From NCBI GenBank assembly GCA_027340875.1, contig DAIENX010000080.1:1-11758 (forward strand): a stretch of DNA of 11,758 bases, in the 5' to 3' direction. The notes under the pieces are model-generated. The model had not been told where the DNA came from. It saw nothing but the letters and a program-made list of their open reading frames with translations, and made no database searches. The position numbers and the translations under genes were made by a program. Of the stretch, positions 600 to 11,584 are shown one piece after another. The stretch comes from Elusimicrobiota bacterium. GTDB lineage: Bacteria > Elusimicrobiota > Elusimicrobia > Elusimicrobiales > UBA9959. Every line of letters starts with the position of its first letter. Position 1 is the first letter of the stretch.

Positions 600-629
600 A
601 AAAAACCCGGGGAAGTCCCCGGGTTTTTT
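600..629. terminator. Bidirectional rho-independent terminator between convergent pgi and antiporter
   Basis: AAAAAA-CCCGGGG-AAGT-CCCCGGG-TTTTTT: a 7-bp GC stem flanked by A6 and T6, giving a U-tract on both strands. Confidence 0.9.
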
Positions 630-1875
630 ATTGCGGTTCAGGAGGAACGGGTTCCTCATAAGGGTCGGCCGCCGCTTCGGGCTCCGAGGGAGGGTCCGGG
701 TCCTCGTCCCCGGAATGCTTTATCACTCCCCACGTCATCACCAGGGACGAGATCAGGATCGTCCAGAGCAGCACGCTGTCGGGTATCATCGCCAGGCGGA
801 AGTCCGAAGGGATGCCCATGAAAAGCAGTATCGTGATAAGGCCGCGGGGGGCCACGTAGGTCAGCGCCGAGGCGCGCAGCTTCGGGAGCATCAGACGCAG
901 CGGCAGGGCCCTGGAAGCGTAGACGATCAGCATCAGCGGCAGGACTATGGCCATCGCGTTGCGGTCCAGCAGCTTCGGGATATCGGCGGAATAACCCAGC
1001 AGCACGAAGAAGAAGGTCTTGATCACGAACGTGCTCTCCGCGATCACGCTCTTGAACTGCACCACCTCGTCCTGTATCTTCTCCAGTCTGAAATACTTGC
1101 GCATGTTCCCGCGGATGAACAGCGTGATATTGTTCAGGAAGAGCCCGAAGACCAGCACCAGTATCAGCGGCGAATAGTGCATCATCTTGGCCGTGGCGTA
1201 GACCAGCAGGAGTATCGCGAACACCGGCAGGTGCTTGACCTGGTGGCGCACGCGCTCGACGAGAGCCGTCAGGCCGAGCGAGAACAGCAGCGAGAGCAGC
1301 GTGGTGACCACTATCTCGAGGAAGAACGAGAACAGCGAGCCCACCCCGAACACCGCGTTGAGGGCTATGAAGTTGAACACCAGGATCCCCAGGATGTCAG
1401 AGAAAGAGCTCTCGTACGTGACGAACTCGCGCCGGGAATCCGAGAAAAGTCTGGCTCCGGGGATGGCGATCGCGCTGCTGATGATAGCGAAAGGCACGGC
1501 GTTTATCAGGCAGACGCGCCAGGGCTCTCCGAAAAGTAGTTTGTAAAGCCCGGCTATGCCGAACAGGCAGAGCAGCAGCCCGGCAAGAGAGGAGAGGGAG
1601 CTCTTGCGGATGAGGCGGGTCTTCTCTAGGTTGAGCTCCAGGTCGAGACCGGCCTCGAGGACGATGAGTATCAGGCCTATCGTGCCAAGGGGAGCGAGCA
1701 CGTAGTCCAGATAGGGGATGATGTAGCCGGTCCAGTTGGAGATCAGGCGCAGCAGCAGTCCCGAAAGTATGAGAAGAACTACCGGCGGCAGCCTGGTCCG
1801 GTCGGAAAGCATGTCGAACAGGTACGAGACCAGTACGATGACGCTTACGATTACGAGGACGATCTCAGCGCTCAT
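628..1875 (-). CDS. Cation:proton antiporter (Na+/H+ exchanger, CPA superfamily), about 415 aa
   Basis: About 12-13 hydrophobic segments, with PPVVLLILSG, IGLILIVLEAGLDL, YESSFSDILG and APRGLITILL resembling CPA transmembrane motifs. Start set at ATG 1875 (MSAEIV), 13 nt downstream of a TATAAT; the ORF extension to 2079 crosses the promoter region. Confidence 0.85.
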   Translation of the reverse strand: MSAEIVLVIVSVIVLVSYLFDMLSDRTRLPPVVLLILSGLLLRLISNWTGYIIPYLDYVLAPLGTIGLILIVLEAGLDLELNLEKTRLIRKSSLSSLAGLLLCLFGIAGLYKLLFGEPWRVCLINAVPFAIISSAIAIPGARLFSDSRREFVTYESSFSDILGILVFNFIALNAVFGVGSLFSFFLEIVVTTLLSLLFSLGLTALVERVRHQVKHLPVFAILLLVYATAKMMHYSPLILVLVFGLFLNNITLFIRGNMRKYFRLEKIQDEVVQFKSVIAESTFVIKTFFFVLLGYSADIPKLLDRNAMAIVLPLMLIVYASRALPLRLMLPKLRASALTYVAPRGLITILLFMGIPSDFRLAMIPDSVLLWTILISSLVMTWGVIKHSGDEDPDPPSEPEAAADPYEEPVPPEPQ

Positions 1876-1888
1876 GGCGGCGCCGGTA

Positions 1889-1894
1889 ATTATA
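1889..1894 (-). promoter_or_regulatory. Putative sigma70 -10 element (TATAAT) for the antiporter
   Basis: Perfect TATAAT on the minus strand within an AT-rich island, 13 nt upstream of the ATG. No convincing -35 (CTCGCG at 17-nt spacing). Confidence 0.55.
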
Positions 1895-1903
1895 CAAAAA
1901 TAC

Positions 1904-1932
1904 TTTAATCCCGCGAGTATTAATGATAAAAT
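1904..1932 (+). promoter_or_regulatory. Putative extended -10 sigma70 promoter for the otsA-like/otsB operon
   Basis: TTTAAT(1904-1909)-N17-TAAAAT(1927-1932) with TGn (TGA, 1924-1926) directly before the -10. Confidence 0.55.
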
Positions 1933-2096
1933 CACTCTGGGGAAGGGTTCAGCCCGCCGCTCCCGCTCCGGCGCCACGCCGGTCCGCTGGGAGAACCGCC
2001 GGGCGAACGACGCGGCCCTTGACCGCGAAACTCCAGGATCTGCCGCCGCCGGCGGCCGCGGGCCGGTCCGCAAACTCACAGGAGTCTGCCTTTTAT

Positions 2097-4349
2097 ATGA
2101 GAATAACCCTCCGACTTATCATTTCATTGAGCCTGGTAGTGATAACGGTGGCTTTCAGCTCCACCTGGATAAACGTGCGCCAGCAGAAGAAGCGGATGTA
2201 CGAGGAGGTCACCGCCCATTCCGCGCTGCTCGCCGCGACCTTCAGGGAGAGCGCGGTCCGGCTTCTCGACGCCGGCGACGCCACCGCCCTGCAGAAACTG
2301 GCGGACAAGCTGCAGAACCAGAAGAACCTGGAAGGAGTGGCTGTATACGGCGAGGAAGGAATGCTCCTCTCCGGCTCTTCGGCTATCCCGCCGGAGCTGC
2401 TGGTCCGGGGCAAGGAGATAAACCGGGCCGTCTCCGATGCCGGCGGGCAGGCGGTAGCGCTGACGGTGGGGAACAGCCGCATCCTGCTCTACCCGCTGGA
2501 TTTCACCTACCGGGGCGGCCACAAGGCCCGCATGGTCCTGTTCAGCAACGTCTCGAACATAGATTACGAGCTGTTCCGCATCTGGGAGAGCACGCTGCTG
2601 CGCCTGCTGGCCCAGATGATCCTGATAGCGGTCGTCACACTGCTGGTGGTCCGCTGGACCGTGGTGGACCCCATCAAACAGACAGCCGAATGGATGAAGC
2701 GGCTGCGCGTCGGCGACGCTTCCGGACATTCCATGCCGCTGAAGGGCAGCCTTTTCGCGCCGCTCGCCAAGGAGGCCACCACGCTGGCCAAGAACCTTAA
2801 GGCCGCGCGCAGCGCCGCGGAAAAAGAGGCCCGCCTGCGCAACGAGGCGGGCTCCATCTGGACGGCGGACAGGCTGAAGGAGCATATCAAGATGGTGATG
2901 GACGGCAATCCGATCTTCGTGGTCTCCAACCGGGAGCCGTACCTCCACATGAAGGAGGGCAGCGAGATACGCTGCATCCGGCCTGCCGGCGGACTGGTGA
3001 CCGCCCTGGACCCGATAATGAAGGCCGCCTCCGGCACCTGGATAGCCCAGGCCAGCGGAGACGCAGACTTCGACGTCACCGACCGGAACGACCGCATCAA
3101 GGTGCCGCCGGAGGAGCCGGCCTACACGCTGCGCCGCGTTCCGCTGACGAAGGAGGAGGAGGACGGCTATTATTACGGCTTCTCCAACGAAGGCATCTGG
3201 CCTCTCTGCCACATAGCCCACATCCGACCTATCTTCAGGAAGGAGGACTGGGCCCAGTACTACGCCGTGAACAAGAAATTCGCGCAGACCGTCCTGGAGG
3301 AGATCGAGGACGTGAAGGACCCGTGCGTGCTGATCCAGGACTATCATTTCACGCTGCTGCCGGGCATGATAAAGGAGGCCCGCCCGGACGCCCGAGTGGC
3401 CGTCTTCTGGCATATCCCCTGGCCCAACCCGGAGACGTTCGGCATCTGTCCCTGGCAGAAGGACCTCGTGCTCGGCCTGCTGGGCGCGGACCTGATAGGC
3501 TTCCAGACGCAGTTCTACTGCAACAACTTCCTGGAGACCGTGGACCGGACCATAGAGTCCAGGCTCGACTGGGAGCATTTCACCGTGCAGAAGGAGGGCC
3601 ACGTAACGGCGGTAAAGCCCTTCCCGATAAGCGTGGACTTCACCCAGCCGGAGCGCGAGGAGAGGCAACTGCCGGCGAAGCCGGAGCCCGCCGCCGTCCT
3701 GAAGGACCTGGGCCTGCGCGCCGAGAAGCTGGCCGTCGGCGTGGACCGCATAGACTACACCAAGGGCATCCTGGAAAGGGTGAAGGCCGTTGAGCGCTTC
3801 CTGGAGAAATACCCGGAGTACGTAGGGAAGTTCACGTTCATACAGCTCGGCGCCCCCAGCAGGACCCACATACCGCAGTATCACCGCTTTATCGCCGAGC
3901 TGCACGCGGAGGTGGACCGGATAAACTGGCGCTTCCGCGCCAAGAACTGGAAGGCCATAGTGTTCTTCGAGAAGCACCACGACCACAAGGAGATAACAAA
4001 GTACTACAAGATAGCCGACACCTGCCTGGTCACGTCGCTGCACGACGGTATGAACCTGGTGGCGAAGGAGTTCGTGGCGGCCAGGGAGGACCTGGGGGGC
4101 GTGCTGATCCTGAGCCGCTTCGCCGGCGCCTCGCGCGACCTGAGGGACGCCCTGATAGTCAATCCGTACGACGTTGAGCAGATGGCCGACGCTATCTACT
4201 ATTCGCTGACGATGCCGGCGGCGGAGATAGAGGAGAGGATGTCCCGGATGCGCCGCCAGATCTATGAGAACAACATCTACAAATGGGCCGCCGACCTGAC
4301 CGGCGAGGTCATGAAGCTGCGGCTGGACAGCTTCAGCGAGGTCTCATGA
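2097..4349 (+). CDS. otsA: Trehalose-6-phosphate synthase (GT20) with an N-terminal TM-extracytoplasmic sensor-TM-HAMP module, about 750 aa
   Basis: C-terminal ~480 aa carry the OtsA/GT20 motifs VVSNREP, AGGLVTAL, YYGFSNEGIWPLCH, QDYH, FWHIPWP, GVDRIDYTKG, GAPSR and DGMNLVAKEF. N-terminal ~270 aa have two hydrophobic helices and a HAMP-like segment. ATG at 2097 is preceded by AGGAG (2080-2084). Confidence 0.93.
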   Translation: MRITLRLIISLSLVVITVAFSSTWINVRQQKKRMYEEVTAHSALLAATFRESAVRLLDAGDATALQKLADKLQNQKNLEGVAVYGEEGMLLSGSSAIPPELLVRGKEINRAVSDAGGQAVALTVGNSRILLYPLDFTYRGGHKARMVLFSNVSNIDYELFRIWESTLLRLLAQMILIAVVTLLVVRWTVVDPIKQTAEWMKRLRVGDASGHSMPLKGSLFAPLAKEATTLAKNLKAARSAAEKEARLRNEAGSIWTADRLKEHIKMVMDGNPIFVVSNREPYLHMKEGSEIRCIRPAGGLVTALDPIMKAASGTWIAQASGDADFDVTDRNDRIKVPPEEPAYTLRRVPLTKEEEDGYYYGFSNEGIWPLCHIAHIRPIFRKEDWAQYYAVNKKFAQTVLEEIEDVKDPCVLIQDYHFTLLPGMIKEARPDARVAVFWHIPWPNPETFGICPWQKDLVLGLLGADLIGFQTQFYCNNFLETVDRTIESRLDWEHFTVQKEGHVTAVKPFPISVDFTQPEREERQLPAKPEPAAVLKDLGLRAEKLAVGVDRIDYTKGILERVKAVERFLEKYPEYVGKFTFIQLGAPSRTHIPQYHRFIAELHAEVDRINWRFRAKNWKAIVFFEKHHDHKEITKYYKIADTCLVTSLHDGMNLVAKEFVAAREDLGGVLILSRFAGASRDLRDALIVNPYDVEQMADAIYYSLTMPAAEIEERMSRMRRQIYENNIYKWAADLTGEVMKLRLDSFSEVS

Positions 4350-5128
4350 GGCGGTTCTGGGACAGCTCGGCCCGTCTTGCCGGGCAGCTGGCGGCGCCCC
4401 GCCTGCTGGTAACGCTGGACTTCGACGGGACACTGGCCGCGCTGGCGCAAACCCCGGGAGCCGCGAGGCTGCGCCCCGAGTACAGGACGGCTCTGATACG
4501 CCTGGCGGCCGCGCCTGGAGTATCCGTCTTCATCCTGAGCGGCCGCACGCTGGGGGACGTCAAGGCCTTGGTAGGCCTGCCCCGCCTCTATTACGGCGGG
4601 AACCACGGCATCGAAGTGGCCGGGCCAGGATTCTCCTGCCGCGACCCGAGGGCGGAGAAGACCAGGGAAATGGTCGCCAGCGCCGCCGCCGACATGCTGC
4701 AGCGCTTCCCGCCGGGGACCGGCGTGCTTGTGGAGGACAAGGTCTTCTCGGCGAGCGTCCATTACAGGACGCTGAAGCCGGCCTACAGGGCGGGCTTCTT
4801 CGGCAGGATGCGGACCCTGACGGCCAGGCAGGGGGGCAGGCTGCGCTGGCGCCGCGGGCACAAGGTGTTCGAGCTGCGCCCGGTCTCGGCCTGCGACAAG
4901 GGCGCTGCGGCCCTCCGCCTGCGAATGGAGCTGGGCAACCCGTTCGCGGTCGCCGTCGGCGACGACCTGACCGACGAGGACATGTTCCGGGCGCTGAAGG
5001 GCCGCGGCATAACCGTCAGGGTGGGGATGAAGCGCGGCTCGAAGGCGGAATATTTCCTCGACCGGCAGACGGAGGTCCTCCGCCTGCTAAAGTTCATCCT
5101 GGCCGCGCGCAAGGCTAGGGGGATATGA
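4346..5128 (+). CDS. otsB: Trehalose-6-phosphate phosphatase (HAD subfamily IIB), about 260 aa
   Basis: HAD motifs LDFDGTL, ILSGR, GNHG, DKG and GDDLTDEDMF, plus the TPP-typical VEDK..SVHYR and G.KVFELRP. The start overlaps the otsA stop (ATGA, 4346-4349). Confidence 0.93.
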   Translation: MRRFWDSSARLAGQLAAPRLLVTLDFDGTLAALAQTPGAARLRPEYRTALIRLAAAPGVSVFILSGRTLGDVKALVGLPRLYYGGNHGIEVAGPGFSCRDPRAEKTREMVASAAADMLQRFPPGTGVLVEDKVFSASVHYRTLKPAYRAGFFGRMRTLTARQGGRLRWRRGHKVFELRPVSACDKGAAALRLRMELGNPFAVAVGDDLTDEDMFRALKGRGITVRVGMKRGSKAEYFLDRQTEVLRLLKFILAARKARGI

Positions 5129-5258: not shown

Positions 5259-6812
5259 ATGCATCCCCTGCTTAAGACAAAAAAGGTAGGCCTGCTGCTC
5301 CCGCTCTTCTCGATGCGCTCCGTACGCGACTGGGGTACCGGAGACTTCTCCTCGATGCGGGGCTGGCTGGACGTCCTGCATTCCGCCGGCCTTACCATAC
5401 TGCAGGTGCTGCCGCTCAACGAGATGCCGCCTGGCGTGAACTGCCCCTACACGGCCCTCAGCGCGTTCGCGCTGGACCCGGTATACCTGGACCCCTGCGC
5501 GCTGCCGGAGCTGGCCGAAGCCCCCGAAGCCGCGGCTTACATGGAATCGCGGGAGTTCAAGGCCAGGCTGGCCGCGCTGCGTGCCTCGAAACAGACCCTT
5601 TACGACGATATCCGCGCGCTCAAGCATGAGACGCTCTGGCGCGTCTTCACCGCTTTCCACAAGCACCACGTACTGGGCGGGACGCCTGAAGGCAAGGCCT
5701 TCGAGGCGTTCTGTTCGAAGAACGCCTACTGGCTGGAGGACTACGCCCTGTTCCGCCGCCTCAAGGACGTGCACCGCTGGATATCCTGGACGCACTGGCC
5801 CGGCCCGCTGTCCGCGCGCGAGCCTTCCGCGGTAGCCGCCGCCGCGGCGGAGCACGGACTGGAGACGGTCTTCTTCAAATACCTGCAGTGGTGCGTGCAG
5901 CGCCAGTGGCGCCAGGCCCGCCAGCGGGCGGCCGAGCTGGGTATCTCTCTCTTCGGGGACCTCCCCTTCATGGTCAACCAGGAATCGGCCGACATCTGGT
6001 CGCGCCAGCCGGAGTTCGACATCAGTCTGTCCATCGGGGCCCCGCCGGACACCTGGACCCCGGAAGGCCAGAAGTGGGGCCTGCCGGCCTACAACTGGGA
6101 CGTGGCGGAGGCCACCGGGTTCGAGTGGTGGAAGCTCAAGCTGCGCAGGGCCGAGGAGCTCTACGACATCTACCGCATAGACCATATGGTCGGCTTCTTC
6201 CGCACCTGGATAGTGCCGGAGGACAAGCGCCTGAAGCCGCATTTCGACATAGAGGGGGACCGGGCCCAGGAGGACAGGGGCAGACGCTTCCTGAAGGCGC
6301 TGACCTCGTCCTCGCGCATGCTGGCGGTCGGCGAGGACCTGGGACTGATACCGCCTTACGTCGGGAAGGTGCTGGCCGAGGCAGGCGTGCCCGGCTACAA
6401 GGTGCTGCGCTGGGAGAAGACCGGCGACGATTACGCCGACCCGGCGGATTTCCCGAAGGTTTCGCTGGCCACGACGTCCACCCACGACACGGAGCAACTG
6501 GCCGCCTGGTGGAAGTCGGCGGGTCCCAAGGAACGCCGGCTCTTCTGGAAGATGGTCTCCGGGCGGGACGGAAAGCCTCCGGCCTTCGCGAAGGCGCTGG
6601 ACCCGCTGCTGCGCAAGATGATAGCCGGCGGCTCGAGGGTCGTGATACTTCCCTATCAGGACCTCTTCGGCATCCCTGACAGGATCAACACCCCGAACAC
6701 CGTCGGGCCGCACAACTGGTCCTTCCGTCCCGACGTGCCGCTCGAGCAGTTCCAGCAGAAGCACGGCGACAGGCTGCGGCAGCTGGCTTCCTGGATAAGG
6801 GAGGCCCGGTGA
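5259..6812 (+). CDS. malQ: 4-alpha-glucanotransferase (amylomaltase, GH77), 517 aa
   Basis: GLLLPLFS..DWGTGDF, QVLPLN, PY..S.FAL, GDLPF, GAPPD..GQKWGLP, and the catalytic triad motifs YRIDHMVGF, GEDLG and STHD, followed by RINTPNT...NW. Confidence 0.95.
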   Translation: MHPLLKTKKVGLLLPLFSMRSVRDWGTGDFSSMRGWLDVLHSAGLTILQVLPLNEMPPGVNCPYTALSAFALDPVYLDPCALPELAEAPEAAAYMESREFKARLAALRASKQTLYDDIRALKHETLWRVFTAFHKHHVLGGTPEGKAFEAFCSKNAYWLEDYALFRRLKDVHRWISWTHWPGPLSAREPSAVAAAAAEHGLETVFFKYLQWCVQRQWRQARQRAAELGISLFGDLPFMVNQESADIWSRQPEFDISLSIGAPPDTWTPEGQKWGLPAYNWDVAEATGFEWWKLKLRRAEELYDIYRIDHMVGFFRTWIVPEDKRLKPHFDIEGDRAQEDRGRRFLKALTSSSRMLAVGEDLGLIPPYVGKVLAEAGVPGYKVLRWEKTGDDYADPADFPKVSLATTSTHDTEQLAAWWKSAGPKERRLFWKMVSGRDGKPPAFAKALDPLLRKMIAGGSRVVILPYQDLFGIPDRINTPNTVGPHNWSFRPDVPLEQFQQKHGDRLRQLASWIREAR

Positions 6813-9800
6813 AGGCTTCCGCCCCGCTTGCCGCCCAGGACCCGCTCTGGTACAAGGACGCGGTCATCTACGAGCTGCACGTAAAGTCCTTCAGCGACAG
6901 CAACGCCGACGGCATAGGCGACTTCCCCGGCCTGACGGCAAGGCTGCCCTACCTCAAGAGCCTGGGCGTCACGGCCCTCTGGCTGCTGCCTTTCTACCCG
7001 TCCCCGCTCAAGGACGACGGCTACGACATCTCGGACTACTTCGACATCAACCCGGACTACGGGACGATGGCCGACTTCAGGGATTTCCTGAAGGAGGCCA
7101 GCAGGCTGGGCCTGCGGGTGATCACGGAGCTGGTGGTCAACCATACCTCGGACCAGCACCCCTGGTTCAAGCGGGCCCGCGCCGCGCAGCCCGGCTCCTC
7201 GGCCCGCGATTTCTACGTCTGGAACGACAGTCCGGAGAAGTACAAGGACGCCAGGGTGATCTTCAAGGACTTCGAGTCCTCCAACTGGACCTGGGACCCG
7301 GCGGCCAAGGCCTATTACTGGCACCGCTTCTACCACCACCAGCCCGACCTGAACTTCGATAATCCCGCGGTGCAGAAGGAGCTGTTCAAGGTCGTGGACT
7401 TCTGGCTCGGAATGGGGGTGGACGGCATGCGCCTCGACGCCGTCCCGTATCTCTACGAGGAGGAGGGGACGAACTGCGAGAACCTGCCGCAGACGCACGC
7501 CTTCCTGAAGAAGCTCCGCGCTCACGTCGACTCCAGGTTCAAGGGCCGGATGCTGCTCTGCGAGGCCAACCAGTGGCCGGAGGACGCGGCCGCCTATTTC
7601 GGCGCCGGCGACGAGTGCAACATGGCCTTCCATTTCCCGGTCATGCCCAGGCTTTTCATGTCGCTCTGGATGGAGGACAGCTTCCCCGTAACGGACATCC
7701 TGGACCAGACCCCGGTCATACCGGAGTCCTGCCAGTGGGCCGTCTTCCTCCGAAACCACGACGAGCTGACGCTGGAGATGGTCACCGACGAAGAGCGGGA
7801 CTACATGTACAAGGTCTACGCGCGCGACGCCAAGGCCCGCATCAACCTGGGCATCAGGCGGCGCCTGGCCCCGCTGCTCGGCAACAACCGCAGGAAGATA
7901 GAGCTGATGAACATTCTGCTGTTCTCGCTCCCGGGCACGCCGGTGCTGTATTACGGCGACGAGATAGGGATGGGGGACAACTTCTACCTGGGCGACCGCA
8001 ACGGCGTGCGGACGCCCATGCAGTGGAGCCCGGACCGCAACGCCGGCTTCTCGAAAGCCAACCCCCAGAAGCTGTTCCTGCCGGTAGTCACCGACCCGGA
8101 ATACCACTACGAGGCCGTCAACGTCGAGAGCCACGAGGGCAACCTTTCCTCCCTGCTGTGGTGGATGAAGCGCGTCATCGCGATGCGCGAGGACTACAAG
8201 TCCTTCGGCCGCGGCACCTTCGAGCCCGTGCGCTCCAGCAATCCCAAGGTACTGGCCTTCACGCGCCGCTACGGCGACGAGATAATGCTGGTCGTCGCCA
8301 ACCTTTCCCGCTTCTCCCAGTCCGCTTCGCTCGACCTCTCCAGGTACGCCGGCTATACTCCGGTGGAGGTGTTCGGCGGACACAAGTTCCCGGCCATCGC
8401 CGACAAGCCCTACCAGCTCACTCCCGGCTTCCACAACTATTACTGGTTCCGGCTGATGAAGGGCTCGGGGCCGGTCCAGACCGGGCCGAAAGCCCTGCCG
8501 GAGCTGAGCTTTCCCGGAGATGACTGGGCCTCGTTCGTCTCCGGACGGCGCGTCTCGTCGCTGGACCAGGCCCTGGAGGAATACCTCCGGCGCGGCGGAC
8601 CGCCGCAGTACGACGCGGAAGGACTGCGGAGCGCCGCCGTTTCGGACCTGTTCCCGCTGCCCTCCGGCGCGGCACTGGCCACTCTCTCCGCCTATCACCC
8701 GCAGGGCCGTTCCGAGACGCTGCTGCTGCCGCTGCGCTTCGTCACCGGGGCAGCCGCGGAAGAGGCCGCGCGCAGGCGCCCGGAACTGGTGGTCGCGGCG
8801 GCGACCTTCTCCGGAGAGAAAGGGCTCGTCGTGGACGCGCTCTACGACCCGGTCTTCCACGCGGACCTGCTGTCCCTGTTCATCTCGCGCAGGCGCGCCC
8901 GCTGCGGCAAGGGGGAACTGAGGGCTATCGCCTCGCCGCTGTTCCGCCGGTCGCTGGACACCAACCCCATGCCGGCGGATTCCAAAGTATTGAAGTCCGG
9001 CCCCAACGGCGCTACCATCCTTTACGGCTCCCACTACGTCCTGCGCTTCTGCCACCGTCTTGAGGAGGGCCCCAGCCCGGACCTCGAGCTCGGCCTGCGG
9101 ATGACCGAGGCCGGCGAGCAGGGTGCACCCGTCACTTTCGGCTCGCTGAACCTGAGCCGGGCCGGAAAGTTCCACGGCACCCTTGCGGTGCTCCGTTCCT
9201 TCGTTCCCAACCAGGGAAGCGCCTGGACCCTGATGCTGAACGAAGTATCGAAGTTCTACGAGGCCACACAGTCGGCGCCGCCCGCTGGCACGCCGCCGCC
9301 GCTCCCCGCTGCCGGACCACTCGAGATCAAGGACATCCCGGCGGTCCTTACCGCGGCTTCCGGCGCCGTGGCTTTCGAGATGGCGTCCATGCTGGGGCAC
9401 CGCCTCGGTAAGGTGCACACCGCGCTGGCCGCGGGCGCCGACCCGGAATTCGCCCCGGAGCCTTTCTCCAGGCTCTACCAGCGCTCGGTCTACCAGTCCC
9501 TAGCGGGTCACGCCAAGAAGTCGCTGCTGGCGGTTTCCGCGCGCCTGCAGGGAACCGCCCCGGAAACCGCGGAGGACATCTCCGCAGTGCTGGCCGGCCA
9601 GCAGAAGCTGCTGCGCCTGGCCCAGCGCCTCAACGAGCGGAAGTTCGCGGCCCGGAAGATACGGATACACGGCAACTGCACGCTGAAGCAGGCGCTGTTC
9701 ACCGGCAAGGACTTCGTCTTCACGGACTTCGAGGGCGACCCGGCCCGGGCCTTCGGCGAGCGCCGCATCAAGCGCTCGCCGCTGCGCGACGCGGCCTCGA

Positions 9801-10114
9801 TGCTGTTCTCTTTCTACTACGCCGCTCACGCGCCTTTCCTGCTGCCCGGAGGGATCCCTAGGAAGGAGCTGGAGGCCCTCGGCCCCTGGCTCAGGCTGTG
9901 GTACGCCTGCGCCGCCGGCTCCTTCCTGCGCGGCTACTGCCACGCCACCGGAGATATGCAGCTCCTGCCGCCCGACTGCGGCGACGCGATGCTGCTGCTG
10001 GATATATTCCTGGCCGAGAGGGCCGTTCAGGCCCTGCCCGAGGAGATGGCAGCAAGGCCCGACTGGGCTTTCGTTCCCGCCAGGCTTCTGCGCGAGCTGA
10101 TGGAAAGGGCCTGA
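6809..10114 (+). CDS. treS: Trehalose synthase / maltose alpha-D-glucosyltransferase (GH13) fused to a degenerate maltokinase (Mak/Pep2)-like domain, 1101 aa
   Basis: N-terminal ~550 aa: WYKDAVIYE, DDGYDISD, ELVVNHTSDQHPWF, catalytic RLDAVPYL / EANQWP / FLRNHDELTLE, INLGIRRRLAPL, DRNGVRTPMQW. C-terminal half: RIHG...DFEG.P...RRIKRSPLRD.ASML.SF.YAA, typical of Mak. The GTG start overlaps the malQ stop (GTGA). Confidence 0.95.
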   Translation: MKASAPLAAQDPLWYKDAVIYELHVKSFSDSNADGIGDFPGLTARLPYLKSLGVTALWLLPFYPSPLKDDGYDISDYFDINPDYGTMADFRDFLKEASRLGLRVITELVVNHTSDQHPWFKRARAAQPGSSARDFYVWNDSPEKYKDARVIFKDFESSNWTWDPAAKAYYWHRFYHHQPDLNFDNPAVQKELFKVVDFWLGMGVDGMRLDAVPYLYEEEGTNCENLPQTHAFLKKLRAHVDSRFKGRMLLCEANQWPEDAAAYFGAGDECNMAFHFPVMPRLFMSLWMEDSFPVTDILDQTPVIPESCQWAVFLRNHDELTLEMVTDEERDYMYKVYARDAKARINLGIRRRLAPLLGNNRRKIELMNILLFSLPGTPVLYYGDEIGMGDNFYLGDRNGVRTPMQWSPDRNAGFSKANPQKLFLPVVTDPEYHYEAVNVESHEGNLSSLLWWMKRVIAMREDYKSFGRGTFEPVRSSNPKVLAFTRRYGDEIMLVVANLSRFSQSASLDLSRYAGYTPVEVFGGHKFPAIADKPYQLTPGFHNYYWFRLMKGSGPVQTGPKALPELSFPGDDWASFVSGRRVSSLDQALEEYLRRGGPPQYDAEGLRSAAVSDLFPLPSGAALATLSAYHPQGRSETLLLPLRFVTGAAAEEAARRRPELVVAAATFSGEKGLVVDALYDPVFHADLLSLFISRRRARCGKGELRAIASPLFRRSLDTNPMPADSKVLKSGPNGATILYGSHYVLRFCHRLEEGPSPDLELGLRMTEAGEQGAPVTFGSLNLSRAGKFHGTLAVLRSFVPNQGSAWTLMLNEVSKFYEATQSAPPAGTPPPLPAAGPLEIKDIPAVLTAASGAVAFEMASMLGHRLGKVHTALAAGADPEFAPEPFSRLYQRSVYQSLAGHAKKSLLAVSARLQGTAPETAEDISAVLAGQQKLLRLAQRLNERKFAARKIRIHGNCTLKQALFTGKDFVFTDFEGDPARAFGERRIKRSPLRDAASMLFSFYYAAHAPFLLPGGIPRKELEALGPWLRLWYACAAGSFLRGYCHATGDMQLLPPDCGDAMLLLDIFLAERAVQALPEEMAARPDWAFVPARLLRELMERA

Positions 10115-10180: not shown

Positions 10181-11539
10181 TCAGCGCCTCAGGCTGTTGA
10201 CGGCGTCGTCCACCTTCTGTATGAACCTTATGGCGAGCGCGGCGAGGCCGCCGGGCCTGGGGGAATAGGTGGAGCGCATCTGCTGGAGCTCCTTGCCCAG
10301 TTCGCCTTTCACCGACTCCGACTTCATCATGGACAGTACCTGGGACGGGTATACGCTGCGGTTGCCCGTCATCAGGAAGCTTATGACGCAGGCGACCGTA
10401 GCGTACGGGGCGACCGCGGGGCCGAAGAGCTCCACGGCCATGATGCTGGCGGCTATCGGTGTGTTCGCCGCACCAGCCAGGACCGCCGTCATGCCTATGG
10501 CCGCGAATGTAGCGTGGTCCAGGTGCAGCAGACCGGCGTACAGGCTGCCGGCGGTCGTACCGACGAAGAAGACCGGAGTGATTATGCCGCCGCTGCCGCC
10601 GAAGCTCAGCGTTATACCGGTGAAGACCGACTTCATTATGAAGTCGTACCAGTGGGCCGGAGCGCCCATCAGCGAGTCCTCTATCACGTCCAGGCCGAGG
10701 CCTAGGTAGCGCTTGGTGACCAGCAGCGTAAGCGCCACTATGACGGTGCCGCCTATCAGGCCGCGATAAGGTTCCCAGATCTTAATGTCGTGGGCCTTCT
10801 TCTCGAAATAGCTCACGGTCTCGATAAGTATCATCGCCGCCAGGCCGCAGAACACGCCGGCGAACATGACCTTCAGCATGAAGGTCTCGGAAAAGACGGG
10901 GATGAACTTAAGCGGACGGTAAAAATAGGATACGCCCATAGCGGCCGATATCTGGTAGGCGGTGATGCCCGAGATGAAGGAGGGCAGCAGCACCTCGTAC
11001 AGGATGGAGCCCACGAACAGCACCTCGACGCCGAATATGGCCCCGGCTATCGGGGTACCGAAGACGGCCGCGAAGCCGGCGCTGATGCCGCAGATGACCA
11101 GTTTCTGCCTATCATGGTCGTTGAACTGGAACAGCTGGCTGAAGGCCGAGGTTATGCCGGCCCCTATCTGAGCGCAGGGACCTTCCTTGCCGGCCGAGCC
11201 TCCGAGAGCCAGGGTTATCAGCGTGGCGACCAGCTTCACGGGCACTACCGCCAGCGGTATGCGGCCGGCGCGGCGGTGTATGGATTCTATCACTTTCTCT
11301 GTGCCGTGGCCCTTGGCCTCCGGGGCCAGATATTTCACCAGCGCGGCGCTGGCGAACATGGCTACAGGGAGCAGCAGATAGTAATATTCCCAGCCGGAGG
11401 CCCAGTCGGAGGTTATGCGCAGGTACTTCAGGAACAGCGCGGTGGGGAAACCGACTATGGTGCCGGCCAAAGTCGCCAGGAAGACCCACTTTACTATGCT
11501 TATGAAGAGGAGGGTCGACTCTGTTATGTGCGTTTTCAT
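10181..11539 (-). CDS. CLC-family (voltage-gated chloride channel family) anion transporter without CBS domains, about 452 aa
   Basis: GGSAGKEGP, GISAGFAAVFGTPIAG, GGSGGIITP.F..G, AGAANTPIA...ELFG and SVY.SQ. Start at ATG 11539, preceded by AGGAAG and a good promoter. Confidence 0.93.
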   Translation of the reverse strand: MKTHITESTLLFISIVKWVFLATLAGTIVGFPTALFLKYLRITSDWASGWEYYYLLLPVAMFASAALVKYLAPEAKGHGTEKVIESIHRRAGRIPLAVVPVKLVATLITLALGGSAGKEGPCAQIGAGITSAFSQLFQFNDHDRQKLVICGISAGFAAVFGTPIAGAIFGVEVLFVGSILYEVLLPSFISGITAYQISAAMGVSYFYRPLKFIPVFSETFMLKVMFAGVFCGLAAMILIETVSYFEKKAHDIKIWEPYRGLIGGTVIVALTLLVTKRYLGLGLDVIEDSLMGAPAHWYDFIMKSVFTGITLSFGGSGGIITPVFFVGTTAGSLYAGLLHLDHATFAAIGMTAVLAGAANTPIAASIMAVELFGPAVAPYATVACVISFLMTGNRSVYPSQVLSMMKSESVKGELGKELQQMRSTYSPRPGGLAALAIRFIQKVDDAVNSLRR

Positions 11540-11555
11540 CTGCAGCTTCCTATAT

Positions 11556-11584
11556 AAGTTATCAAATTCCCGCCGCATATGCAA
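11556..11584 (-). promoter_or_regulatory. Putative sigma70 promoter for the CLC gene
   Basis: Minus strand reads TTGCAT-N17-TAACTT, with TGn before the -10, ending 16 nt before the ATG. Confidence 0.6.

Follow-up and report, generated by a model that had tools for sequence, protein, structure and literature searches.

Can trehalose-6-phosphate (T6P) synthesis be governed directly from the cell membrane by the protein that carries it out? The question is raised by an 11,758-nucleotide (nt) stretch of DNA from an Elusimicrobiota bacterium, called the window here, which is one entire contig (DAIENX010000080.1) of assembly GCA_027340875.1 (genome 2.8 Mb, 112 contigs, 92% complete, 5.5% contamination). 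The gene in question, a sensor-fused otsA (P0001; 2097..4349, + strand), encodes 750 amino acids (aa) in a translation without stops. Its first 270 residues or so, the N-module, resemble a membrane receptor, and the remainder matches the Pfam GT20 family. In the usual view, transcription or cytoplasmic effectors switch trehalose synthesis, and known HAMP receptors drive signalling enzymes. The reading favored here, with a probability of about 0.58, is that this protein works as a receptor-enzyme of the membrane, whose helical relay gates an intact T6P synthase on a salt, osmotic or envelope cue. The predicted layout, with input and output in one chain, is that of a one-component system; the relay would make the output depend on the input.

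Architecture of the membrane arm and the enzyme

The order of the parts was derived from profiles, hydropathy and an AlphaFold monomer model of the full protein (alignment of 127 sequences; predicted local distance difference test score (pLDDT) 86; predicted template modelling score (pTM) 0.66). The first transmembrane helix (TM1, aa 3-25; 2103..2171, +) appears in both hydropathy and model, and the positive-inside rule would put the N-terminus inside. It is followed by a predicted extracytoplasmic single-Cache-like domain (aa 28-160; 2178..2576, +; profiles and model) and by TM2 (aa 166-187; 2592..2657, +; hydropathy), which runs on into HAMP helix 1 in the model. The two TM helices predicted by an earlier sequence-only reading of this DNA were recovered, with Kyte-Doolittle peaks at aa 3-21/7-25 and 167-185 and agreement from the model. 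Model helices span residues 2-59, 62-72, 153-204, 221-250 and 257-268, and the five-strand pattern is broken by helices at 99-114. The Cache-like domain consists of a long helix, a helix at 62-72, strands at 78-84 and 90-93, the helices at 99-114, and strands at 120-124, 127-138 and 142-151. This modelled order is compatible with a long helix plus a five-stranded PAS-like sheet at pLDDT 83-93, and fold-search matches were to the GT20 part alone. The domain fills the extracytoplasmic stretch between the two TM helices, a mark of Cache domains taken from parts of PMC4822843.

Profile comparisons point in the same direction. The N-module profile was colinear over 229 columns with a Cache-HAMP kinase (hhalign probability 95.7%), which itself bears a Pfam HAMP domain at E 2.7e-14 and a weak sCache_3_2 match. 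Single-sequence NCBIfam matches were weak (MtrB, E 1.8e-4; WalK, E 1.3e-3), and the PDB profile matches, all of them weak (E 0.03-0.45), include a chemoreceptor HAMP (6s1k) and the sensor domains 5o7j, 4u64 and 5is1. Atlas features of the protein fell into HAMP and sCache clusters at 0.95-0.97. Among 62 diverse members searched at E <= 0.05, SMP_2 was matched by 13, sCache_3_2 by 12, dCache_1 by 9 and HAMP by 6; one homologue of residues 1-270 carries PF17203. SMP_2 is named as a Cache-clan family in parts of PMC4822843. By profile and predicted topology, the N-module is Cache-like and HAMP-like; by Pfam cut-off it is not a member. In one homologue (P0099, 913 aa), the sensor is duplicated in tandem ahead of TM2, like a double-Cache arrangement.

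Right after TM2 stands a predicted divergent HAMP unit (aa 188-236; 2658..2804, +; profiles and model). It is composed of a Pro-started amphipathic helix, a Gly, a connector and a second amphipathic helix, and it can be aligned to true HAMPs. Its landmarks are P192, core positions I193/M200/L203, G206, the connector and core positions L223/L230/L234, with W199 and E226 invariant in the family. When a TM2+HAMP sub-profile was searched against the 9389 open reading frames (ORFs) of the own genome, six Pfam-HAMP ORFs ranked at the top after the self match, and the reversed profile found none. The HAMP sub-profile without TM2 found one, and seven of the nine non-self matches of the whole N-module profile in this genome were Pfam-HAMP ORFs. 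The HAMP unit leads into an Ala-rich charged coil that resembles a signalling helix (aa 237-252; 2805..2852, +) and then into a junction helix (W255-T-x-x-R-L260...M268; 2859..2900, +), which is also the N-terminus of several sensor-less relatives. None of the solved GT20 structures matched by sequence reaches residues before ~263.

The enzyme part (aa 273-740; 2913..4316, +) is a GT20 T6P synthase domain with a predicted GT-B fold. Its Pfam PF00982 match at aa 274-735 scores 396.9 bits, above the gathering score of 32.5. The twin Rossmann fold of the AlphaFold model is nearest to OtsA (Foldseek: 5jio, E 3.8e-39, target TM-score 0.90; fold search: 5v0t, Z 42.8, root-mean-square deviation 2.2 A over 437 residues). 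The translation contains the motifs quoted by the earlier reading (LEGVAVYGEEGMLL, VVDPIKQTAEWMKRLRVGD, LAKEATTLAKNL and KAARSAAEKEARLR). Compared with E. coli OtsA, R279, G299, Y359, W368, D415, H439, R551, K556, D650-G-M-N-L654 and E658 are kept; these positions are invariant or nearly so among the 127 aligned homologues, and R589 is kept in 126 of the 127. The positions were chosen in part from sections of PMC6879718. The remainder of the choice consists of positions that we take to be phosphate-binding or catalytic in the E. coli enzyme. The claim that all OtsA motifs are retained was correct for every phosphate-binding and catalytic position checked and for the DGMNLVAKE motif with the acceptor- and donor-binding residues, but not for E. 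coli W42. At that position the protein has Q318 (nt 3048-3050), which is unique to this copy, as H is found in 29 of 30 family members.

Formation of T6P from nucleoside diphosphate (NDP)-glucose and glucose-6-phosphate would follow from these residues and from the adjacent otsB. The protein falls below the cut-off of the NCBIfam model for UDP-forming OtsA (TIGR02400; 433.6 versus 564.85 bits), and the glucosylglycerol-phosphate synthase model scores lower still (300.1). In the donor site, L584 and E632 equal L319 and E367 of the ADP-glucose-preferring mycobacterial OtsA, and the third residue is H628 instead of V363. The own genome has glgC above cut-off and galU not above cut-off; the PF01704 search matched no control genome and carries no information. 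The donor is probably an NDP-glucose, and ADP-glucose is weakly suggested as the likelier one in this genome.

Proposed coupling of the arm to the enzyme

In the favored mechanism, the protein would be a dimer held together by the coil and by a bundle of four HAMP helices. TM2 and HAMP would shift when either the outer domain or the bilayer changes, and this movement would travel along the coil to the junction helix at W255, which lies on the N-terminal Rossmann domain. The junction helix could then alter either the closure of the GT-B domains or the packing of the two catalytic domains. The enzyme would make T6P from glucose-6-phosphate and NDP-glucose, with ADP-glucose likelier. The coupled phosphatase OtsB would turn T6P into trehalose, a compatible solute, and MalQ and TreS would tie this pool to alpha-glucan. 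In most relatives, a riboswitch of the nhaA-I class (Li+/Na+) may add control at the level of transcription or translation.

The helix register fits such a relay. Spacings were counted in 127 aligned proteins, 103 of type I and 24 of type II, the types being set by a gap at P192 and not by gap size. D151 and W199 are 48 residues apart in all 103 type I proteins and 41 apart in all 24 of type II. The distance from P222 to W255 is 33 in 102 of 103 type I proteins and 26 in 16 of 24 type II proteins, and that from W255 to N278 is 23 in 123 of 127, while the lengths of the sensor core and of the connector vary freely. A spacing that is either constant or seven residues shorter, as a signalling coiled coil would give, is suggestive of a relay. 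Rough NG86 ratios of nonsynonymous to synonymous substitution (dN/dS) from 30 family genes, most pairs of which are near saturation, were 0.06-0.10 in coil and linker and 0.07-0.08 in GT20, rose to 0.13-0.17 in HAMP and were highest in the sensor (0.26-0.40). The earlier proposal of HAMP-mediated control of T6P synthesis gains plausibility from the conserved register and from purifying selection on HAMP and coil.

Several findings weigh against this reading. The Pfam cut-offs of the Cache clan are missed here (SMP_2 only, at E 0.016-0.086). PF00672 has no match in this protein, and the best E value among the six of 62 homologues that match it at E <= 0.05 is 0.0032. The proposed anatomy of TM, Cache-like domain, TM and HAMP accordingly stands as an order of two TM helices, Cache-like domain, HAMP-like unit, coil and GT20 seen by profiles and model, but not as Pfam-level membership. 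S-L-F-A-P is found where DExG, which we take to be the canonical HAMP motif, would be expected, and aa 206-230, the connector region, have pLDDT < 50 in the monomer model. No N-module residue is invariant across the 62 diverse members. Constant spacing is no proof, as helices accept few indels anyway. The preference for ADP-glucose is weakly grounded because the third donor-site residue is H628 and not V and because the genome is 92% complete. Three Mesorhizobium relatives that are nested among the fused forms (L046:5272-7050, L047 and L051:6809-8623) have one TM helix and a short linker, without sensor or HAMP, which indicates that the sensor can be lost.

The sensor of this copy adds to these points. 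In 55 non-redundant rows, the wider family shows a signature of R41 (87%), D151 (91%), E76, H130, P135 and H150. All six are missing here, where H, N, K, L, D and S are read in their places, and the family has largely lost the signature too. Sensor residues 96-150 are just 41% identical within the family; the first half of the sensor reaches 63-68%, and HAMP, coil and GT20 reach 77-89% (75-89% with the membrane parts). At 80-90% GT20 identity, sensor identity is 48% in this clade and 59% in other clades. The second half of the sensor also outpaces the sensor of a neighboring kinase in three of three genome pairs (0.23-0.33 versus 0.39-0.53). The idea of a specific extracellular ligand is weakened for this copy and becomes doubtful, because the signature was lost in the lineage and the pocket half evolves fastest. 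This copy is unlikely to have a conserved pocket for a small molecule. Its sensor may have decayed, its ligands may be diversifying, or it may respond to a physical or ionic cue; for this lineage, a cue of the last kind is more probable than a specific small ligand.

The same observations favor the strongest alternative, in which the arm only tethers and pairs the enzyme as a passive anchor and dimeriser, the enzyme is always active or answers to metabolites, and the outer domain, at least in this lineage, serves as a structural spacer or is in decay. The sensor has the highest dN/dS, its signature is gone and its pocket half is variable, and single-TM forms exist in Mesorhizobium. In a sister clade, moreover, OtsA is fused to an unrelated cation/proton-antiporter domain, which suggests that membrane attachment itself is favored. 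This alternative nevertheless appears unlikely. A module of 250 aa has been kept in records of more than ten phyla after a single inferred gain, and the sensor is still under purifying selection. The divergence of the whole sensor is about that of the operon kinase sensor in three genome pairs (0.39-0.47 versus 0.39-0.56), and in two of the three it equals that of this real kinase sensor. The relay changes length in sevens, and HAMP and coil are nearly as constrained as the catalytic domain.

Operon, leader and the role of the product

The surroundings of the gene bear on what the enzyme is for. The stop of otsA and the start of otsB overlap as ATGA (4346-4349). OtsB, a T6P phosphatase (4346..5128, +), has all of the HAD motifs DFDGT, SGR, DKG and GDDLTDE. 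Its gene occurs in 48 of 65 fused GTDB loci and directly downstream of otsA in all 29 family relatives. In 12 longer family loci, DUF5752-treT comes next in 10 and a kinase in 4. In the genome G263, riboswitch-DUF1646-otsA-otsB-(kinase)-DUF5752-treT forms a tandem repeat.

Of 29 family relatives, 26 have an nhaA-I riboswitch (RF03057) no more than 1.5 kb upstream, 15 of them found by Rfam and 11 by a model built from 9 matches. At more distant loci, nhaA-I was present in 3 of 9, and a further 10, mostly Acidobacteriota and Elusimicrobiota GTDB loci, had no Rfam riboswitch, which confines the link to certain lineages. Riboswitches of this class respond to Li+, or to Na+ in some variants, and a role in osmotic stress has been suggested for trehalose-phosphate synthase (TPS) genes downstream of such riboswitches, according to parts of White et al. 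2022 (PMC9646797). Together, otsB, treT, malQ/treS and the cation riboswitch indicate an osmoprotectant operon, a context that points to salt stress and bulk trehalose rather than to a T6P signal.

In this copy, the riboswitch has been lost, and an unrelated GC-rich leader (1933..2096, +) stands where relatives have it, behind a conserved promoter-like element. The latter is an extended -10-like TGATAAAAT (1924..1932, +), which aligns with the same element in three relatives and is a putative promoter that the consensus scan did not call. The possibility that the leader holds a riboswitch or some other known RNA was rejected: RF03057 had no match upstream of otsA in this window and none at cut-off in the own genome, Rfam gave only sub-threshold noise on the window and on 1850-2150, the nhaA-I loop motif was absent from the leader even at 3 mismatches, and the family-trained riboswitch model had no match near this gene. 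The leader fold z-score is -1.85, and a search of 79 family genomes found no leader homologue, just scattered short matches. As this copy has no riboswitch, a switch at the protein level would be its sole evident salt-linked control. Another family genome has a match to the 2dG-II purine riboswitch that exceeds the gathering score (L131:952-1022, -) and has no bearing on the fusion.

A second alternative is a nutrient-gated enzyme, whose outer domain would recognize a sugar or a carboxylate and which would route ADP-glucose into trehalose and, by way of TreS-maltokinase and MalQ, into alpha-glucan storage instead of osmoprotection. In its favor, malQ and treS-maltokinase lie downstream of otsB here, the donor residues are of the ADP-glucose type, and a link of OtsA-TreS-Mak to glucan synthesis is known from parts of PMC11046441. 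It is nonetheless improbable: treS is near only 3 of 65 fused loci and malQ near none, and the conserved context consists of otsB, treT, cation transporters and a cation riboswitch. Searches of the 92%-complete own genome found no GlgE, and likewise no TreT or DUF5752.

The earlier reading had also suggested that T6P may act as a second messenger. In this version T6P would be written by the receptor and removed by OtsB, and its reader would be an effector that binds T6P, possibly the operon kinase. The layout is indeed like that of receptor cyclases, and a membrane histidine kinase gene stands right after otsB in 9 of 29 family relatives (kinase genes near otsB: L119:16455-17894, L121:10363-11772, L125:7668-9086 and L130:9908-11293). 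However, the operon kinase has its own outer sensor and no extra cytoplasmic input domain was seen in it, the own genome yielded no close match to it, and no sugar-phosphate-binding regulator recurs in the neighbor clusters of 77 loci. In relatives, a TreT route that bypasses T6P shares the operon. Given the osmoprotectant genes, the cation riboswitch and the lack of a recurring T6P-receptor-like neighbor in these clusters, the messenger role was not upheld and is very improbable. That the operon kinase is a near paralogue of the sensor arm was rejected on an hhalign value of only 41% and the lack of a close match in the own genome.

The longest listed frame at this locus begins at 1923. This longer ORF was dismissed and the start placed at ATG 2097 because a Shine-Dalgarno-like AGGAG (2080..2084, +) lies 12 nt 5' of it and because 30 of 30 family genes begin with M[RK][IV]T at the corresponding position. 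This otsA is the sole one found in the own genome. Downstream of otsB follow malQ, a 4-alpha-glucanotransferase gene of GH77 (5259..6812, +), and treS with a fused maltokinase-like C-terminal domain (6809..10114, +). A CLC-family chloride channel/transporter gene converges on treS (10181-11584, -; profile match), and a CLC gene is also near 4 of 65 fused GTDB loci. Divergent from otsA is a cation/proton-antiporter-like gene (628..1875, -; NF003716, E 1.1e-10, under the family cut-off), which is conserved beside otsA in relatives as well. A hairpin at 583-631 between A and T runs separates it from the convergent pgi gene and resembles a bidirectional terminator.

Distribution of the fusion and comparison with known systems

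A search with residues 1-270, in which 7999 candidates were scored, found 97 proteins, and all 97 carry GT20. The nearest named homologues belong to Elusimicrobiota. As the sequence-only reading had supposed, the named homologues are annotated only as TPS or hypothetical. In GTDB, at least 600 relatives were encountered and the best 80 kept, a sample that leans to forms like this one. Of these 80 loci, 65 have an intact module of 240-300 aa, 4 are broken by frameshifts, 3 are the single-TM Mesorhizobium forms, in 2 an antiporter domain takes the place of the module, and 6 are soluble. The frameshifts (L052, L057, L058 and L074) are probably sequencing errors in metagenome-assembled genomes (MAGs). 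By GTDB record labels, the fusion spans more than ten phyla, some MAG labels being possibly mis-binned. Within its own phylum, 46 of 201 genomes match, 23 of them from residue 12 or earlier, and a full-length match on plasmids was not found. Cultured strains also carry it (Caenimonas koreensis DSM 17982 and Oligoflexus tunisiensis Shr3), and several genomes (G221, G240 and L119 (G263:C27)) hold two fused copies of otsA.

At E <= 1e-30, the N-module profile matched 430 representatives. The 150 best of them differ in what follows the module: 62 run into GT20, 62 stop within 35 residues and 26 have odd tails, which were judged by eye, without a Pfam scan, to be frameshifted or of low complexity. 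By GT20 profile and inspection, none of the best 150 joins the N-module to another output. That the fusion is a product of misassembly or of two genes running on by chance, a suspicion that the 112 contigs and 5.5% contamination might raise, can practically be discounted, since the fusion recurs in 97 of 97 homologues, in 65 of 80 GTDB loci plus 4 frameshifted ones and in cultured strains, contigs from 4 Logan runs cover the gene without joints, and an independently assembled Logan contig, possibly from the very sample that yielded this DNA, spans 1700-4127 without difference.

A quick tree of 34 GT20 domains calls for a single gain of the sensor arm (support 84, weak) and a single loss. Soluble relatives that already start at the W255 helix fall outside the fused group. 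Three soluble relatives begin at a W255-type helix (L131 (G180), L133 (G005) and L055), and G180 has the same divergent antiporter-like gene. The antiporter-OtsA proteins join PF00999 in frame to GT20 (L061:5696-8464, + and L069:5714-8464, +); they come from Acidobacteriota MAGs of Vicinamibacterales type and are 64% identical over 903 aa. Among the matches listed, 119 of 120 homologues carry both families, and they form the sister clade with an unrelated membrane part.

Extended to the whole group, the favored reading would describe a widespread class of one-component receptors in which a HAMP relay drives a GT-B enzyme between open and closed states, so that a change in salt or turgor sensed at the membrane sets off compatible-solute synthesis within seconds and without gene expression. 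This wider claim is tentative, at somewhat less than an even chance. If the relay gates the enzyme, Cache-HAMP receptors would gain a new class of output, and many soil and groundwater bacteria whose proteins are annotated only as TPS would have post-translational, membrane-triggered osmoprotection. Together with the independent antiporter-OtsA fusion, trehalose synthesis would then have been wired to the membrane at least twice in bacteria. The old question of what an osmosensor senses would acquire a direct enzyme read-out. An easy enzyme assay and cultured carriers make the mechanism of HAMP signalling and osmosensing directly testable, and the protein is a possible chassis for sensor-controlled glycosyltransferases.

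Targeted full-text literature searches (listings and abstracts), with subscription journals outside their scope, found no paper on this architecture. The terms 'HAMP' and 'transmembrane' are absent from PMC13597711 and PMC11046441. Parts of PMC2700814 state that Geobacter GSU2337 'contains a domain' resembling the mycobacterial enzyme. Cache domains pair with known signalling outputs, SMP_2 excepted, in the sections of Upadhyay et al. 2016 (PMC4822843) that treat them. Trehalose is not mentioned in the text of that paper, and the fusion was not found in 12 of its 18 supplementary files; the other 6 could list this architecture.

Among known systems, the soluble OtsA/Tps1 enzymes (Mycobacterium thermoresistibile 5jij/5jio, E. 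coli 1gz5/1uqt and Burkholderia xenovorans 5v0t) share the GT-B fold, the catalytic residues and the OtsB partner at ~32% identity. In contrast to them, the present protein has a further membrane module of 270 aa and a W255 junction helix that is specific to its clade, and W42 is replaced. The nhaA-I (Li+-I / Na+-II) operons share the gene context, with the riboswitch, presumably Li+- or Na+-responsive, ahead of the operon in 26 of 29 relatives but not in this window. Cache-HAMP kinases and chemoreceptors (WalK, MtrB and 6s1k) have the same order and spacing of TM, sCache, TM, HAMP and coil. Their output is a kinase, cyclase, phosphatase or methyl-accepting domain, whereas here it is a metabolic glycosyltransferase, and the HAMP unit is divergent with an invariant W199. 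One-component receptor-enzymes are also known, such as membrane diguanylate and adenylate cyclases, PP2C phosphatases and LapD-type receptors. They show the same single-chain coupling of input and output by HAMP and a coiled helix; they yield signals or act on signalling targets, whereas the product here would be a bulk protective metabolite. The present analysis adds two losses in this lineage, that of the riboswitch and that of the sensor signature, together with the register and selection counts. Both halves of the protein are known, and a Cache-HAMP input on a metabolic glycosyltransferase would be a new output on a known receptor chassis.

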